This document shows, piece after piece, positions 2,746 through 20,772 of a DNA stretch of 64,000 bases. Within the stretch, counting starts at the first letter, position 1; every line of letters begins with the position of its first letter. The notes under the pieces were generated by a model. That model did not search any database. It was not told the origin of the DNA and worked only from the letters and a program-made list of their open reading frames with translations. The stretch lies in contig CAYOTK010000001.1 in assembly GCA_964406895.1 (NCBI GenBank), positions 90,697-154,696 of the forward strand. The letters are read 5' to 3'. Made by a program: the position numbers and the translations under genes. The DNA is from an uncultured Candidatus Saccharibacteria bacterium. Its GTDB lineage: Bacteria > Patescibacteriota > Minisyncoccia > Phycocordibacterales > PALSA-1337.

Positions 2746-3125
2746 ACTTCAGAATGAATACAAAAAACAAACCAAATATTCGGCCATAGCGCTTAACCTG
2801 TTTGGTTATCGTTAGAGCCGCCAAGAAGCGGTTTTGTTTTATTCAGAAAGAAAGCAATTTGAAAACCACATACCGAGAAATAAAATGTAGGTAGTTCATG
2901 TACCATATTTGCCTTGGTCGGCCGATATGAGAATGCATGAACACAAGTAAGTAAGCGGTGTACAGATTTCCTAATGGGAAATCAAGGGCGTATGGTGGAT
3001 GCCTTGGCTAGAAAAAGCGATGAAGGACGTGGCGTGGCGACGATACGCTTCGGGGAGGTGCCGAGCAACCTTTGATCCGAAGATGTCCGAATGGGGAAAC
3101 CCGATTATGTAAAACATAATTACTG

Positions 3126-3263
3126 TGTCTCGTTAGTGTTTATTATAAGCGCAAAGCTCAAAGCTCAAAGGGCAAAACTCAAAAGTAAAGGCAAAAGCTA
3201 AAAACTTTTAACCTTAAGCTTTGAATTTGAACCTTTAACCTTTTAATAAATAGTAACGAGACA
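3126..3263 (+). other. IVS-like expansion in the 23S gene at the helix-9 position. A hairpin (stem tgtctcgttag / ctaacgagaca) encloses low-complexity gcaaagctcaaag repeats.
   Basis: About 100 extra nt relative to E. coli between GGGAAACCC and GGGAACUGAAACAUC. Flanked by an 11-bp inverted repeat. Confidence 0.6.
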
Positions 3264-3591
3264 CGGAGCGTACGTTGGGAAGTAAAACATTTCAGTACCA
3301 ACAGGAATAAAAACAAAAATGCATTCCGTTAGTAGCGGCGAGCGAAAGCGGAGGAGACTAAACTTAACGTCGCAAGACGTTGAGGGTTGCAAGGCAGAGA
3401 CGTGCTATTTATAGCAGAGAAGTTACAAAATCTTTTGTTAGCAGAATGAGCTGGAAAGCTCGACCCTAGAGGGTGATAGTCCCGTAAGTTAAAACAAAAG
3501 ATCTTCTTGGTTTCTGTTCTTAAGTACCCCAGGACACGAATAGCTTGGGGGAATCTGCCGGAACTAACCGGCAAGTCTAAATATTTTTCTA

Positions 3592-3631
<40 letters not shown>

Positions 3632-4437
3632 CAGCCCGGAAGGGCGGTGAAATAGATCTGAAACCATATGCCTACAAGGAGTCAGCGCCGTTGCACCTCA
3701 TTGCATTTGCTATAGTGAAATAATCAATAACCAAGATCCAATAATCAAACTCTTATCGAGTTTTGTTTGTTGATTATTGGTGTTTGATTATTTCATGGTA
3801 TCGAATGTAACGAGGTGTAACGGTCATGGCGTGCCTATTGAAGAATGAGCCAACGAGTTTTAGCAAGCAGCTCGGCTAAGTCCGCGAGGACGGAGTCACA
3901 GGGAAACCGAGTCTGAATAGGGCGTTTGTTGTTTGCTAAAGACCCGAAGCCAGATGAGCTTGCCACGCGCAGGGTGAAGTTCGCCGAAAGGCGGATGGAG
4001 GCCCGAACCGGTTAGCCGTGCAAAACTATCGGATGACGTGTGGTAAGGAGTGATAAGCTAATCGAATCTGGTAATAGCTGGTTCTCTCCGAAAAAACTTT
4101 TGGGTTTGCGTCAGAATTACCTTCGTGGGGTAGAGCACTGGAAGGTCTCGACAGGTCGAAAGATCACGAGACCTATCAAACTCCGAATACACGAAGTAAC
4201 TATCTGGCAGTTAGACTGTGGGGGCTAAGCTCCATTGGTCAAAAGGGAAACAGCCCGGATCTCAATTTAAGGTCCCTAAATCGACGTTCAGTGCGCTTAA
4301 GGTAGTGAAAATTCTACGACAATGAGGATGTAGGCTTAGAAGCAGCCATCATTCGAAGATAGCGTAACAGCTCACTCATCGAGAAATTTCGCGCCGCAGA
4401 TAATCGGGGCTAAAATGTCGTACCGAAACTGAGGACT

Positions 4438-4683
4438 TGTAAACTACATTGAGGAAAATTTTGTTCTTTAGGTACCAGAGTAGTTCAATGGCAGAACAGC
4501 TGATTTGGTTGCGCATTGCGACCGTTTTAAGTCAGTATGTTGAAGGTTCGATTCCTTCCTCTGGTGCCAAGTAGATTTCGGTGCTCGGGTAGCACATCTC
4601 GCCAATAAAGCGAGACGGGTTAAAACCCCGCCGGGCATCAATTTCGGGGGGAACTTCGGTTCCCCTCCTCAATGTAGTTTACA
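4438..4683 (+). other. IVS in the 23S gene at the helix-45 position (E. coli ~1170). A perfect 17-bp flanking stem (tgtaaactacattgagg / cctcaatgtagtttaca) encloses a tRNA-like module.
   Basis: 23S homology stops at 4437 and resumes at 4684. The insertion is bounded by a perfect inverted repeat, as in RNase III-processed IVSs. Confidence 0.7.
4474..4569 (+). ncRNA. tRNA-like element inside the helix-45 IVS. Features: 7-bp acceptor stem (ACCAGAG/CTCTGGT), D-arm (GTTC AATGGCA GAAC), canonical T-arm (GAAGG TTCGATT CCTTC), discriminator G and an encoded CCA. The anticodon region is expanded by ~21 nt (loop-like TTTGGTT, i.e. a UGG-like anticodon, then a 21-nt insert).
   Basis: Folded by hand from the sequence. 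The GGTTCGATTCC T-loop and a 3' CCA adjacent to a complementary acceptor strand are both present. Confidence 0.5.
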
Positions 4684-5231
4684 AGTGGTAGGAGAGTATT
4701 TGCATCGCGATGAAGGTGAAGGGGTGACCCACACTGGAGCGTTGCGAAGTAAGAATGTTGGCACAAGTAACCGCAATGCGGGTGAGATACCCGCACGCCG
4801 AAAGATCAAGGTTTCCTTGGCAATGTATATCAGCCAAGGGTTAGTCGGTCCTAAGGGGATGGCGAATGCCGCACCCGATGGATACACGGTTAATATTCCG
4901 TGACTTTCATAAAAATCGATGGAGTGACGAAGTGTAGTATATTGTGCGCATAATTGGATTTGACGTTCATGTCGTAAGGATGAGTCTTGGTAAATCCGGA
5001 CTCTGCTTTTGATAGCATATCCAAGCGAAGTGAAAATTTCGAGCAATCGGGAAATACAATAAAGCACACTTCCAAGAAAAGCTTCTAAGATTATTTTTAT
5101 GAAAACCGTACCGCAAACCGACACAGGTGGTTAGGTCGAGTAGACCTAGGCGAACGAGTGAGAGGTCTCCAAGGAACTCGGCAAAAAAGCAGCCGTAACT
5201 TCGGAATAAGGCTTGCCCTCTGGATATTGGT

Positions 5232-5295
5232 CGTTAGTTTTTGGTTTTTGGTAATCGCATTTGTGATTACTAATAACTAATTACTAATTACTAAT
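5232..5295 (+). repeat. AT-rich hairpin mini-repeat (ttagtaatta family), copy A, in the 23S helix-63 variable region.
   Basis: The sequence cgttagtttttggtttttggtaatcgcatttgtgattactaataactaattactaattactaata is about 57/65 identical to the reverse complement of 6931-7015. Confidence 0.6.
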
Positions 5296-5489
5296 ACCCA
5301 GAGGGCCGCAGCTAAAGTATCTCTGGCAACTGTTTAACAAAAACACAGCTCCCTGCGAACTCGTAAGAGGAAGTATAGGGGGTGACACTTGACCAATGCG
5401 AGAAGGTCAAATAACGGCGGTGCGATTATATCAAGCTGACTGTTATAAGCCCTCGTGAATGTCGGTCGTAACTATAACGATCCTAAGGT

Positions 5490-6263
5490 TCTTGGTTTAT
5501 TCACAAGAATGAATCAAGAAGGACTGGGATCGTTATGAGATTAATTGTTAAATATAGAAAACGTATAAGGAATTAATAATGCTGCCTATCTGCGCAGAAT
5601 AAAATGCAGATGTCCTAATAAATATCTGACTATATGCTGGGAAGTCTGAGTATCTCAGGTCACTATGGTATAATTACACCATAGTAACAATACCATGAGT
5701 GCAGACAATCAGCAGGAAAGATTAAAAATTGAAAATTGGATTCTTGGTTTCACTGATGGTGAAGGATGCTTTTCGGTTAGTTTTATAAGAAATAAAACGA
5801 CGAAAACCGGATGGCAAATTTTTCCAGAGTTTGTGATTACGAAAGGAGCCAAAAGTCTGTCTGCTCTCAAAATTATCAAAAAATATTTTGGGTGTGGAAA
5901 ATTATTCGTAAACAGACGTCATGATAATCATAGGGAAAATCTATATCGTTATTGTGTTAGATCTGTTACTGAATTGGAGAAAGTTATCGTCCCATTCTTT
6001 CTAAGAAATGAACTGAAGACATTTAAAATGAATGATTTTCGATTGTTTTCGAAAATCATACTGATTATGTCTGCTGGCGATCATTTGAATATAGTGGGAA
6101 TGAATAAAATCGCCAAATTAGTAGAAAAAATGAACAGACGAAAAAAATCTCGATTTTTGAAATCCTCAGAAACCAAACGTCAGACCCTGAGCGAAGCGCG
6201 TAGCGCTGAGTCGAAGGGAAAATAGAGTTCGCGCTGCATAGCGATATGCAGATTAACAAAACG
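5490..6263 (+). mobile_element. Intron-like insertion (presumed group I) in the 23S gene at the helix-69 hotspot (E. coli ~1917), carrying a LAGLIDADG endonuclease ORF.
   Basis: 774 nt interrupt CCUAAGGU|AGCGAAAUUCC. Preceded by U and ends in G. Junction placement is ambiguous by 1 nt. The group I core was not confidently identified by eye. Confidence 0.65.
5695..6225 (+). CDS. LAGLIDADG homing endonuclease, single-motif (homodimer type), intron-encoded.
   Basis: 176 aa with motif ILGFTDGEGCFSV near the N-terminus. Lies entirely inside the 23S insertion. Confidence 0.8.
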   Translation: MSADNQQERLKIENWILGFTDGEGCFSVSFIRNKTTKTGWQIFPEFVITKGAKSLSALKIIKKYFGCGKLFVNRRHDNHRENLYRYCVRSVTELEKVIVPFFLRNELKTFKMNDFRLFSKIILIMSAGDHLNIVGMNKIAKLVEKMNRRKKSRFLKSSETKRQTLSEARSAESKGK

Positions 6264-6894
6264 TAGCGCAATTCCTTGCGGGGTAAGTTCCCGCGCGTTG
6301 AAAAGTGTAATGACTGGAGAACTGTCTCGGAGACTTGCTCGGTGAAAATACAATACCGGTGAAGATGCCGGTTACCTGCAGTTAGACGAAAAGACCCTAG
6401 AAGCTTTACTGTAATTTGGTATTGACTATACGTTTTTGATGCGTAGCGTAGACGGTAGGATTTGAAGTGTCCCTTTCGGGGGGCATGGATCCGACGATGA
6501 AACACCGTTCTTTAAGAATGTATATTCTAACCTCGGCGGTATAAACGCCGGGAGACAGTATCTGATGGACAGTTTTAGTGGGGCGCTATCCTCCTAAACA
6601 GTAACGGAGGAGCCTATTAAGTTCAGCTAGGCGCGAATGGAAACCGTGCCGATAGTGTATGGGCACAAGCTGGATTGACTGCGAGACGTACGTGTCGAGC
6701 AGATGCGAAAGCAGAGCCAAGTGATCCGACCTTACGCATTAGATGCGGGGGAAGCTCATCGGACAAAAGCTACTCTAGGGATAACAGGCTAGTTCCGCCT
6801 AAGCGTTCATAGCGACGGCGGAGTTCGGCACCTCGATGTCGGCTCACCACATCCCGGGGGTGGAGAAGCTCCCAAGGGTTTGGCTGTTCGCCAA

Positions 6895-6929
<35 letters not shown>

Positions 6930-6930
6930 A

Positions 6931-7015
6931 TTTAGTTATTAGTGATTAGTAGTTAGTTATTGGTGATCGCAAATATGATTACCTAAAACCAAGAACTAAT
7001 AACCAATAACCAAGT
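6931..7015 (+). repeat. AT-rich hairpin mini-repeat, copy B, inverted relative to copy A, at the 5' edge of the second intron. A partial third copy lies at 7099-7145.
   Basis: Reverse complement about 57/65 identical to 5232-5295. The ttagtaattagt motif recurs at 7099-7145. Confidence 0.55.
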
Positions 7016-7137
7016 AGGGCAGTCTGAATCACTTCGAGAGATAATTTTAGTAGTCTATGAAAAAGTATAGGAAATGAACAATCATATCATGGCGGTCGTT
7101 TTAGTAATTAGTCATTAGTAATTAGTGATTAGTTCTA

Positions 7138-7560
7138 ATGCGAACAAGTCGATTTATATCGGTGGAAATCCCGAAAAGGAAGATACCGAGGGAATTATGT
7201 TCACTTAAATGGAAAAGAAGGAAGCGTATGATAATAAAATGGAAGTTGCTAATAAGCGTGTGTGTAGATGATGATTTTGAAAATTGCTTCAAGGATCTGG
7301 AAGCAGATGATGCAGATCAGGCTTTGGAATTAGCGTTCAAAGAAGTTCAGAAAGTTAACAATAGTCTTAGTGATAACGCAGACATCAACAGTGCTCTTTT
7401 ACTCGGGTTTCCTCAAGATGGAGCTTGGAGAAAGAGGCATGGTGACTTCGTTTTCATTGGACGCTGCAGAGCTCTTCAATCCAAAGAAGCAATCAAACAT
7501 TCATCGGTCAGTGAGTTCTGGAGGCCATACGGTACAGCGGACGGCACCATCGAAGACTGA
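7138..7560 (+). CDS. Intron-internal ORF of unknown type (140 aa). No LAGLIDADG, GIY-YIG, HNH or His-Cys motif seen. Possibly degenerate or novel.
   Basis: Longest ORF inside the second 23S insertion. Acidic/low-complexity middle (DDDFENCFKDLEADDADQALE). Confidence 0.3.
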   Translation: MRTSRFISVEIPKRKIPRELCSLKWKRRKRMIIKWKLLISVCVDDDFENCFKDLEADDADQALELAFKEVQKVNNSLSDNADINSALLLGFPQDGAWRKRHGDFVFIGRCRALQSKEAIKHSSVSEFWRPYGTADGTIED

Positions 7561-8052
7561 CCTCAAGGGAATGGTCTCCATTCCCTCCATTTAAGTGAAC
7601 ATAAGCCCGTAGAGACTAAACATCGACCCCCACTTCGCTCCTTTGGAGCTACGCGGGGAAGCTATAGTCCATTGCATCCTGTAAAGGATGATAACAAGCG
7701 TGAGACAGGTTGGTCTCCTATCTACTGCAGGCGTTGATACTTGAGGGGATTTGATAATAGTACGAGAGGACCTTATTGAACAGACCTCTGGTCTACCTGC
7801 TGTCGTGCCAACGGCACCGCAGGGCAGCTATGTCTGGACCGGATAACCGCTGAAAGCATATAAGCGGGAAGCCGACCCCAAGATTATGTATCGTTGAGAC
7901 CCCTGAGAGATGATCAGGTTGATAGGCGTTAGGTGTACGCACCGTAAGGTGTTGAGCCGTGACGTACTAATCCGTCGATCCTGTTAGGAACTTTGTACAG
8001 CATTATTTACGCACTTTATTTCTCGGTTATGGTTTTGAAAGTTGAATATTTT

Positions 8053-8165
8053 GTTCTGGTGGTTCGGCGCTATGGCAACACCCGTTCTCATTCCGAACAC
8101 GGCAGTGAAACGTAGTTGCGGCGATGATAGTCCTTCGGGGCGAAAGTAGCTTGCCGCCAGAACAA
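8053..8165 (+). rRNA. rrf: 5S rRNA.
   Basis: ttctggtggttcggcgctatggc...ccgaacacggcagtgaaacg...gccgccagaac matches the bacterial 5S consensus. Flanked by a processing stem (gttgaatattttgttctgg / ccagaacaaaatattcaac). Confidence 0.9.
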
Positions 8166-18930: not shown

Positions 18931-19002
18931 TAGTTGAATAGGCCCTATCGTCTAGTGGTTAGGACAGCAGGTTTTCAATCTGTTAACCCGGGTTCGACTC
19001 CC
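18931..19002 (+). tRNA. tRNA-Glu (anticodon UUC).
   Basis: GGCCCTA acceptor, D-arm CGTCTAGTGGTTAGGAC, anticodon loop TTTTCAA, T-arm CCGGGTTCGACTCCCGG. Confidence 0.8.
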
Positions 19003-19043
19003 GGTAGGGTCACATCGGATAATAAAAATAGATCCTAAATAGT

Positions 19044-19922
19044 ATGAACAAAACAACAAAAATAATTCTATTAGTGTTTTGGCTACTAGTCATATTATGT
19101 GAATTTATATGGATAATTATGCAATTATCACATAAAAATTCAGAAGAAGTTAAGCGTGATGTTTCAAGGCAAGAAAGTGGGGCGATTCGTATTGACGGAT
19201 GTTATTATAAACTAAATAATCAAATATATTGTGGTGGTATAGGAAGCGTGTACAATATACCAGATGTTGATATTTCTTCATTTCAGGTTATCGAACATAT
19301 TGTCGCAAAAGATAAAAATCATGTATATGTGACTAATCAAATTGATCCAAATTTGGACGCGCAGACTTTTCGTAAATATTATAAAGAAGGGCTTAATCTA
19401 TACGGTTTATTTGCTGATAAAAATGGAATTTATAATATGGACTCAAGTACAAAACTTGTACCTATTGGTTTGAATGTAGACACAGCAACAAGTGTCGATC
19501 CATTTTATATACGAGATGAAAATGGCATATATTTTAATGATTACTCTATTACGAAAATGAATAACGTAGATCCTAGAACATTTCGTATATTGGGTGGCTG
19601 TGCGTCTGTAGAGACATTTTACGCAGAATACGTGGCAGATAATAATCATGTATTTGTTGGCACTGAAATATTGCCCGGGATCGATCCGAATCATTTTGTT
19701 AGAATTGCCACAATTCAAAATAATGACGGTGAGATGCCGTACGCATTCTTTTTATGGAAGGATACAAGTGCAAAAAAAATATATGTTTACTGTGGAACCC
19801 ATATAAAAGAGGCAGATTACGATACATTTGAGTATAAAGATGGTCGTACCCAGGACAAAAATAATTATTATAACTTTAATACTGGCGGGGGAAGTTATAC
19901 AGTGTCTCCCAAATCCAAATAA
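19044..19922 (+). CDS. DKNYY-family repeat protein, membrane-anchored.
   Basis: N-terminal TM. Repeated motifs D..TF....AKDKNHVYV, DAQTFRKYY..ADKNGIYN, DPRTF...YVADNNHVFV, YDTFEYKDGRTQDKNNYYNF. Confidence 0.65.
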   Translation: MNKTTKIILLVFWLLVILCEFIWIIMQLSHKNSEEVKRDVSRQESGAIRIDGCYYKLNNQIYCGGIGSVYNIPDVDISSFQVIEHIVAKDKNHVYVTNQIDPNLDAQTFRKYYKEGLNLYGLFADKNGIYNMDSSTKLVPIGLNVDTATSVDPFYIRDENGIYFNDYSITKMNNVDPRTFRILGGCASVETFYAEYVADNNHVFVGTEILPGIDPNHFVRIATIQNNDGEMPYAFFLWKDTSAKKIYVYCGTHIKEADYDTFEYKDGRTQDKNNYYNFNTGGGSYTVSPKSK

Positions 19923-19976
19923 AATAGATTAAAAAATTTAAAACTTTTTTAGTTTACAAATTGTGTATGCTATAAT

Positions 19977-20190
19977 TTTCCGAGGAGGCGAACATGGCAT
20001 CAAAGCGTAAGAAACCGCACGGTCATCTTCGGCACTTCCTGAAACGGTGTAGAAGGCGCCGTAAGGAACGTGGCGGTTCGGGTCTCGGTCACCGGCACGT
20101 AGAAAAGTCCCAAACATGGTTGTGAGCGGGACTGTGTCGGTGATTTGTGGGCAACGGATTCGTTGCCCAACCTTGTGAGTTTATGATTAC
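19977..20190 (+). ncRNA. GC-rich island with its own extended -10 promoter (TGcTATAAT at ~19958-19966) and a 3' hairpin GGGCAACG-gatt-CGTTGCCC. Candidate structured RNA, or alternatively a 43-aa very basic sORF (19994-20125) behind a GAGGAGG Shine-Dalgarno.
   Basis: Local GC far above the flanks. Internal complementary segments (tcaccggcac / gtgtcggtga, gtccc / gggac). GC-rich codons are atypical for this genome. Confidence 0.35.
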
Positions 20191-20253
20191 GAATTGTATT
20201 TCGATCGTATATTTACAAGGTTTGACGCAGGAATACTATTCGCCAATAGTATG

Positions 20254-20772
20254 AAAATAGAGAAGTTGTGGTTGGTGTTTTGTGTTGTTTTGGTATTGAT
20301 CTGTATTTTATTTGTCGGTTTGAGTGTCGGTAATAAAAAAGCGCCATTTGTAGAAAATGAATATTATAAGATCGTTTACGTTGTTGACGGAGATACATTC
20401 AAGGTAAAAGTGAAAGATAAAATAGTGACCATAAGAATGTTGGGCATCAATACTCCTGAAACTTTGGATCCAAGAAAAGCCGAAGAATGTTTTGGCAAAC
20501 AGGCTTCAGATGAGAGTAAGAAAATACTTGCCGGTTCTATGGTGCGTTTCGAAATGAGTCCGAATAGGGAGGTTATGGATAAGTATGGTAGATACTTGAC
20601 TTACGTATATACGAAAAATAGTATATTCCTGAATGAATATCTTATATCGAACGGCTATGCCAAAGAATATACATACGACAAAGCATATTCCAAGCAATCA
20701 GAATTCAAGAGTTTAGAAAAGAAAGCCAAAAAAGATAGATTAGGTTTGTGGGGTATGTGTAACAACAAATAA
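20254..20772 (+). CDS. Thermonuclease (staphylococcal nuclease/SNase-like), membrane-anchored.
   Basis: GDTFKV...IRMLGINTPE...RYLTYVY...LISNGYAKEY SNase fold motifs. N-terminal TM. Start taken at the ATG, since the track ORF begins at an upstream TTG. Confidence 0.75.
   Translation, partial: KIEKLWLVFCVVLVLICILFVGLSVGNKKAPFVENEYYKIVYVVDGDTFKVKVKDKIVTIRMLGINTPETLDPRKAEECFGKQASDESKKILAGSMVRFEMSPNREVMDKYGRYLTYVYTKNSIFLNEYLISNGYAKEYTYDKAYSKQSEFKSLEKKAKKDRLGLWGMCNNK

Follow-up and report, generated by a model that had tools for sequence, protein, structure and literature searches.

Among described systems, those closest to the locus considered here are the leader-peptide or upstream open reading frame (uORF) attenuators, such as the trp and pyr leaders and the ermC and cat leaders; the arginine-rich-motif (ARM) RNA-binding peptides, such as lambda N, P22 N and HIV Tat and Rev; and the autoregulation of rpsU in the Bacteroidia, an exception led by a Shine-Dalgarno (SD) sequence in genomes that avoid such sequences. 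The locus is a GC-rich island at positions 19977-20190 of a 64-kb stretch of patescibacterial DNA from contig CAYOTK010000001.1 (the window, i.e. the whole stretch analyzed), which contains a 43-codon small open reading frame (sORF) and precedes a gene for a staphylococcal-nuclease-family protein (SNase). Our results indicate that the island is probably a clade-specific micro-protein gene, encoding a basic, amphipathic-helix peptide of 35-45 residues, and that it forms the first element of a module comprising promoter, sORF, two stacked hairpins (H3 and H4), leader and SNase gene. The micro-protein gene possibly doubles as the uORF of a structured SNase leader.

Like the attenuators, the locus has a short SD-led ORF between a promoter and a structural gene, with intervening hairpins and a stop codon lying within a hairpin; it differs in having no U-tract terminator, no demonstrable alternative pairing and a conserved peptide core, and there is no obvious metabolic logic tying Arg codons to a nuclease. 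The likeness to the ARM peptides lies in a short Arg-rich predicted helix (residues 10-26) that is encoded beside conserved hairpins, H3 and H4, which are candidate targets; the two are, however, not homologous, a search of the locus identified no pentaloop of the boxB-like GNRA type, and, whereas the classical ARM peptides lack a hydrophobic stripe, the sORF peptide has conserved Leu, Phe, Leu and Cys/Val residues. With rpsU of the Bacteroidia the locus shares the property of being a small basic-protein gene that is the lone strong-SD gene under SD-independent initiation, but the sORF peptide is not bS21, and the host appears to rely on leaderless initiation, unlike the Bacteroidia. Basic bacterial micro-proteins in general, including bL34, bS21, bS22 and Escherichia coli Sra, resemble the sORF peptide in their length of 35-45 residues, high basicity, possession of their own promoter and ribosome-binding site, and in being missed by gene callers, but they have no sequence relationship to it. 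Occurring in a single genus-level clade only, the sORF peptide is not part of the core ribosome. A relationship with bS21 in particular was considered and rejected; Pfam and NCBIfam gave no Ribosomal_S21 match, and the alignment of HLRHFLKRC with ALRRFKRSC, spanning 9 columns, has an hhalign probability of 0.7%.

Results

The island and its open reading frame

The original prediction, made from the window alone, described a GC-rich island in AT-rich DNA, and this description holds: the GC content of 100-nt windows is 0.57-0.59 at 20000-20150, whereas the flanks are at 0.27-0.33 and the window as a whole is at 0.39; only its rRNA and tRNA regions have values near those of the island. The extended -10 box, GAGGAGG sequence, 43-codon ORF with its translation and hairpins that it listed are likewise all present in the sequence, all of them on the forward strand. 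The extended -10 box, TGcTATAAT, a putative promoter element as read from the sequence, lies at 19968-19976, and no good -35 element was found at the proper spacing from it. The start given for the island needs a small correction: 19977 is directly 3' of TATAAT, and the GC-rich stretch begins at 19980. A transcript from TGcTATAAT would begin at about 19982-19984. The SD-like GAGGAGG (19982-19988) stands 5 nt ahead of the ATG at 19994 that opens the sORF (19994-20125; MASKRKKPHGHLRHFLKRCRRRRKERGGSGLGHRHVEKSQTWL), the predicted product of which has a net charge of +13; the stop codon is TGA, at 20123-20125.

The SD-like sequence is unusual for its genome. A 5-mer SD core precedes none of the 42 long ORFs of the window and a 4-mer core precedes only one of them, whereas a -10 box ends 4-10 nt before the ATG in 17 of the 42, with a peak at 6-7 nt (random ATGs, 5.8%). 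This suggests a genome in which leaderless, SD-free genes predominate. The sORF is the sole SD-led ORF in the 64 kb, and among the GGAGG-N4-9-ATG matches of the window its start is the only one at which an ORF would plausibly begin. It is against this leaderless, SD-free background that the conserved GGAGG stands out.

The codons of the sORF were noted from the outset to be untypical, and this is borne out. Its GC content is 0.55, whereas 0.45 +/- 0.03 would be expected were the peptide encoded with the codon usage of this genome, its GC content at third codon positions (GC3) is 0.53, compared with 0.34 expected (p = 0.004), and CGG, which accounts for only 2% of the Arg codons of the genome, is used three times. 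The high GC content of the island is due partly to the Arg/Gly/His/Pro-rich composition of the peptide (expected GC 0.45), partly to unexplained GC-rich synonymous codons and partly to the stems of hairpins H2 and H3, which are described below.

Coding signal in four lineages

Homologs of the sORF were traced via contigs encoding homologs of the flanking proteins, and were found in loci L086 (4578-4685; peptide MAEKKPSKHLRHFLERVRERRRHPLTKVGKRRARK), L092 (1082-1213; MASKKGKIHRHLRHFLKQCKRRRKERGGSGLGRRHVKSPHVWL) and L093 (402-539; MASKWAQKKLRGHLRRFLKGCRARRKKLGGSGVGHRHTRYPQTYL). Three further loci (L001, L002 and L094) are same-species copies, and the comparison is one of four lineages, i.e. the window, L086, L092 and L093, which constitute a single genus-level clade with FtsZ 94-96% and TrxB 90-97% identical. 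As a neutral yardstick we used the fourfold-degenerate sites of FtsZ, TrxB and SNase, which differ by 34-44% between the window and L092 and by 47-53% between the window and L086.

The -10 box, TATGCTATAAT, is identical in the four lineages, with the DNA farther upstream being at neutral identity, and GGAGG-N5-ATGGCA is kept at fixed spacing in all four. The reading frame is open throughout, the three close ORFs differing by only a single indel, of 6 nt, and the alignment with L086 requiring a 12-nt gap; 1- and 2-nt indels occur directly 3' of the stop codon, with none such within the ORF. In the core of the peptide, HLRHFLxRxRxRR, changes among the four lineages are almost confined to third codon positions, as is apparent from its codons CAT CTN CGN CAC TTY CTN, which include CTT/CTC/CTG, CGG/CGC, TTC/TTT and CTG/CTC variants, and Arg codons are interchanged between CGN and AGR (AGA with CGT, CGG with AGG). 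When the three close lineages are compared with one another, the ratio of nonsynonymous to synonymous differences (pN/pS) is 0.40-0.54, and in comparisons with L086 pN is well under a near-saturated pS. Summed over the comparisons, the sense frame has the lowest pN/pS of the six (0.57, with the others at 0.60-1.47); the mirror antisense frame, at 0.60, is close, but it has stop codons and its start is not conserved. The hydrophobic residues L12, F15, L16 and C/V19 are kept at helical spacing, and in an alignment-free AlphaFold2 prediction residues 10-26 form a helix, the predicted local distance difference test score being ~90 for the core block. To judge from the pattern of substitutions, the core appears to be under selection at the amino-acid level.

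RNA structure within and downstream of the sORF

The 214-nt island of the window has a minimum free energy (MFE) of -82.9 kcal/mol (z = -3.1 versus dinucleotide shuffles), and its GC content is as high as that of the rRNA and tRNA genes in the window; both properties would suit a non-coding, small or structured RNA of ~190 nt, in which the open frame is incidental and the GGAGG and the CU-rich core pair with each other or with an anti-SD sequence. Such an RNA would also fit with the oddness of an SD in an SD-free genome, the failure of gene callers to call the ORF, the retention of GC-rich synonymous codons in all lineages and the ability of GGAGGYGA to pair with UCAUCUUC inside the ORF. We nevertheless consider it improbable, given how the predicted structure behaves in the relatives. 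The MFE z-scores of their islands are only -1.3, -1.9 and -2.2, and permutation of synonymous codons reveals an excess of structure in the window copy only (z = -2.6; relatives, 0.05, -0.6 and -0.2). The RNAalifold covariation terms for alignments of the ORF region are +0.81 and +0.25, i.e. about 0. Hairpin H2 (20089-20143), which pairs tcaccggcac (20089-20098) and gtccc (20107-20111) with gggac (20128-20132) and gtgtcggtga (20134-20143), is not supported as a conserved structure; two positions of its outer 10-bp stem fail to pair in L092, and the stem is absent in L086, where the sequence is unrelated. The proposal of a structured RNA within the ORF, for which covariation in related genomes had been suggested as a check, is thus not supported, the long stems being broken in L092 and L086 without covariation. 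Conservation of the frame, of the start codon and of an in-frame indel, together with the lowest pN/pS being that of the sense frame and the lack of an Rfam match, also argue against a non-coding RNA. What the homologs retain is the peptide and not the pairing, and this supports the micro-protein reading; it was one half of the original prediction, which had offered a structured RNA or a basic micro-protein, with a leaning towards an RNA gene or a structured nuclease leader, and had named this same pattern as grounds for reclassifying the island as a small protein gene.

The situation is different 3' of the ORF. Hairpin H3 (20148-20169; UGGGCAACG-GAUU-CGUUGCCCA, 9 bp), which includes the perfect GGGCAACG/CGTTGCCC hairpin at 20149-20168, is 100% paired in the four lineages; a C-G pair has become U-A through one compensatory change, a G.U pair occurs once, and identity over H3 is 0.71-1.0, compared with a neutral expectation of ~0.5-0.6. 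Directly stacked on it in the RNAalifold consensus is H4 (20170-20221), with an AT-rich 18-bp stem, in which 95.8% of cells are paired, six one-sided changes keep pairing and one change is compensatory; the arms of H4 are at 0.70-1.0 identity and its loop is at neutral identity. Together, H3 and H4 have two compensatory and seven one-sided pairing-preserving changes, whereas slid controls are 31-43% paired. The SNase leader that follows (20223-20250; TGACGCAGGAATACTATTCGCCAATAGT) has an identity of 0.77-1.0 in all lineages, is not present at SNase loci that lack the sORF, and includes a small hairpin, H5 (20235-20250; ACUAUU/AAUAGU), which adjoins the SNase ATG and forms in the MFE structures predicted for the window, L086 and L093.

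These observations bear on a second rival, i.e. that the region is a cis-regulatory leader within one long transcript that runs into the SNase gene, with translation of the uORF, or its nascent peptide, remodelling H2-H5 and so setting SNase expression, and with no function of the peptide in trans. We regard this explanation as unlikely, though it has more in its favour than any of the other alternatives. Module and SNase gene invariably occur together, with a constant ~125 nt from the element to the SNase start in every lineage; H3, the H4 arms and the leader are conserved above the level of the ORF, with pairing kept; and a hairpin around the stop codon, which in the window is the TGA in the loop of H2, occurs in all four lineages, in L086 with unrelated sequence. 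Further, the terminator scan found no canonical terminator between the sORF and the SNase gene; H3 itself is not listed by the scan and has no U-tract, its tail being AACCUUGUGAG. The SNase gene also lacks a -10 box at the genome-typical leaderless spacing of 6-7 nt, and for this reason it may depend on an upstream promoter. RNAalifold additionally proposes that UUCCUG (codons 15-16 of the sORF) pairs with CAGGAA of the SNase leader; this pairing is, however, not preferred in any of the four single-sequence ensembles and is broken in L086, and no mutually exclusive terminator/antiterminator pair was found. The amino-acid conservation and third-position variation of the core are not expected for a purely positional uORF, and a weak promoter-like site, TTTACA-16-TACTAT, is present ahead of the SNase gene. 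The original suggestion of a leader for the downstream nuclease gene stands insofar as the element is always fused to that gene, but the conserved structure is 3' of the ORF and lies partly beyond 19977-20190.

The SNase gene itself (20251-20772; Pfam PF00565, E = 2.3e-25), which encodes a protein with an N-terminal membrane anchor, is the invariable downstream neighbor, its orthologs in L086, L092, L093 and L094 all having the sORF module upstream. Within the clade its protein evolves much faster than its neighbors, with an identity of 61-82%, compared with 94-96% for FtsZ, and a pN/pS of 0.25-0.43, compared with 0.04-0.10 for the neighbors. A 23-codon ATG frame at 20183-20254, spanning H4 and the leader and overlapping the SNase start in an ATGA, was considered as a further ORF and rejected; it is open in the window only, a TAA interrupting it in L093 and the same tcaTAAgg being present in L092 and L086, and for this reason it is probably fortuitous.

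Searches for known families

With Rfam 15 at gathering thresholds, the 23S, 5S and tRNA genes of the window were matched, whereas the island was not. The scan for which the original prediction had called, extended to E<=10 with 4227 models over 19850-20350, gave three matches only, all at chance level and none of them on the island, and ARAGORN found no tmRNA. A GC-rich element of ~200 nt with its own promoter might suggest a divergent housekeeping RNA (signal recognition particle (SRP) RNA, 6S RNA, RNase P RNA or tmRNA), but this element is limited to one genus-level clade and its site is empty in the sister lineages. With no counterpart in 80 related loci and with the stems of the ORF broken, we consider the proposal of an SRP, 6S or other housekeeping RNA to be practically discounted, as far as these scans reach.

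The sORF peptide has no match in Pfam, NCBIfam or PHROGs, and a profile search of the PDB gave non-significant matches only. Translated searches were made with a query of 49 residues, i.e. the 43-residue peptide plus six upstream in-frame residues; they found no relative in IMG/VR, nor among the best 600 candidates from each of the GTDB genomes and the JGI metagenomes. A two-peptide profile had no match in a word-indexed database of 5.8 billion protein sequences, and an exhaustive phmmer search of 1.84 billion representative proteins returned low-complexity repeat proteins only, with no homolog. A degenerate DNA pattern for the HLRHFL core gave 13 matches in metagenome contigs, but these matches were rejected as chance, being inside unrelated or GC-rich ORFs; neither this pattern nor an H3 pattern was found in viral contigs.

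Host lineage and genomic context

FtsZ places the window within the Patescibacteria, class Paceibacteria, among Taylorbacteria-like metagenome-assembled genomes, and the gene order FtsA-FtsZ-TrxB-SNase is kept in 80 related loci. The island was not found in these 80 Paceibacteria loci by blastn, nhmmer or a hidden Markov model (HMM) of the peptide; when every small ORF in the six frames of 92 loci was searched with the peptide HMM, in combination with blastn and nhmmer searches with the island, only same-clade copies were recovered. The next relative, L108, with an FtsZ identity of 88%, is without the sORF. In those relatives for which upstream DNA is in the data, tRNA-Ser(CGA) and tRNA-Glu(UUC) directly adjoin the SNase gene, with no island.

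The ancestral upstream neighbor of the SNase gene, tRNA-Glu(UUC), is present in the window at 18941-19013 (ARAGORN), and a DKNYY-family gene (19044-19922; Pfam PF13644) and the island stand between it and the SNase gene. The upstream neighbors of the module vary: the window has DKNYY, L086 has DKNYY and a 412-aa gene, L092 has tRNA-Glu and L093 has yet another gene. The DKNYY gene was considered as a partner of the sORF and rejected, since its homologs in L085, L087, L089 and L091 are not accompanied by the sORF, while in L092 and L093 the sORF occurs with no DKNYY gene. Given that related loci have the tRNA-Glu/SNase arrangement without the island, the island is a lineage-specific insertion rather than a conserved housekeeping locus.

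An insertion beside a tRNA gene, with untypical GC content and codon usage, not present in sister lineages and with no homolog found, raises the question of whether the island is a decaying, functionless fragment of GC-richer foreign DNA that was inserted by tRNA-Glu. This we consider very unlikely, because four lineages have retained the module at a neutral-site divergence of 34-53%, and the promoter, GGAGG, ORF core and H3/H4 are far over neutral identity. No integrase, repeats or other mobile-element marks were found, and there was no viral match.

Outside the clade, no analogous SD-led basic sORF was found upstream of the SNase gene. The Paceibacteria loci L047 (e.g. gcccctccgctttagcagggcaccatccggtacccc), L054 and L064 do have GC-rich stretches at ~100-200 nt upstream of their SNase genes that are neither tRNA genes nor homologous to the island; none of them has an SD-led basic sORF.

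Elsewhere in the window, the 23S rRNA gene (2972-7980) extends to ~5 kb owing to several large insertions. The full-window Rfam 23S alignment stops at 7054, and the 3' domain of the gene (model positions 2656-2912) is at 7735-7980, followed by 5S rRNA at 8055-8162. Of the insertions, one has an ORF for a LAGLIDADG homing endonuclease (5695-6225; PF00961, E = 1.7e-20), another, at ~7054-7735, holds a 140-aa ORF (7138-7560) with no family match, and a tRNA-like Rfam match of 58.5 bits, not called by ARAGORN, lies inside an insertion at 4474-4566. Upstream of the 23S gene, positions 1-2970 contain no 16S rRNA gene, with a MurA-like 442-aa ORF (1386-2714) present instead, as well as a GC-rich patch at about 820-1000; since no 16S gene precedes the 23S gene in the window, the rRNA genes seem to be unlinked.

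Discussion

The combined results suggest the following working model for the locus. The conserved extended -10 promoter would give rise to a transcript with a 5' leader of ~11 nt carrying the GGAGG, from which a ribosome would translate a very basic peptide of 35-45 residues. Its core, (K)HLRHFLxRxRxRR, is predicted to form an amphipathic α-helix with L12, F15, L16 and C/V19 on the hydrophobic face and Arg, Lys and His residues making up the rest. The ~270-nt module would have arisen in one genus-level clade of Paceibacteria, between tRNA-Glu and the gene for the membrane-anchored SNase. Our best guess is that the peptide acts as a nucleic-acid-binding micro-protein, resembling ARM peptides in this respect, and that H3 and H4 may end, process or stabilize the sORF transcript, and might thereby control the extent to which transcription or translation continues into the SNase gene.

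Several observations weigh against a micro-protein gene. As the genome otherwise uses no SD, the GGAGG is only a candidate ribosome-binding site; the sequences analyzed were searched for the 3' end of 16S rRNA, the site of an anti-SD, and contained no 16S. With just four lineages, all from a single narrow clade, the statistics for coding are weak: the full-length ORF shows no significant codon-position periodicity (variable columns 13/15/20, p = 0.44, four sequences), a pN/pS of 0.57 corresponds to mild constraint only, and the C-terminal half of the L086 peptide is unalignable. Codon usage is untypical of the host, with a log-likelihood under that of all 5000 simulations, and GC3 stays at ~0.5 in each of the four lineages, with no conserved structure that would account for it. 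The sORF is uncalled by gene callers on every contig, and there is no called homolog among the 1.84 billion representatives. Finally, the non-coding H3/H4 and leader are conserved more than the ORF, which fits a mainly cis-regulatory role.

A more speculative possibility, to which we attach a low probability, slightly below that of a non-coding RNA, is that the locus is a new kind of switch, in which a lone SD-led uORF and stacked hairpins couple the state of the ribosome to expression of a surface nuclease, while also yielding a cationic amphipathic peptide that acts together with the nuclease. Such a peptide might, for example, bind or condense nucleic acid, or permeabilize host membranes, thereby releasing DNA for scavenging.

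The element is not a housekeeping one, and its very narrow distribution implies that its general impact is limited. With respect to annotation, the results illustrate that a GC-rich island in AT-rich DNA need not be an RNA gene. As the lone SD-led ORF in 64 kb of an otherwise apparently leaderless, SD-free genome, the sORF provides a small natural test of whether ribosomes of this type still use SD pairing. If the peptide is real, it would represent an orphan micro-protein family, unseen by standard gene calling, in a lineage of episymbionts with reduced genomes, and its gene would be tied to that of a surface nuclease, which probably serves in nucleotide scavenging.

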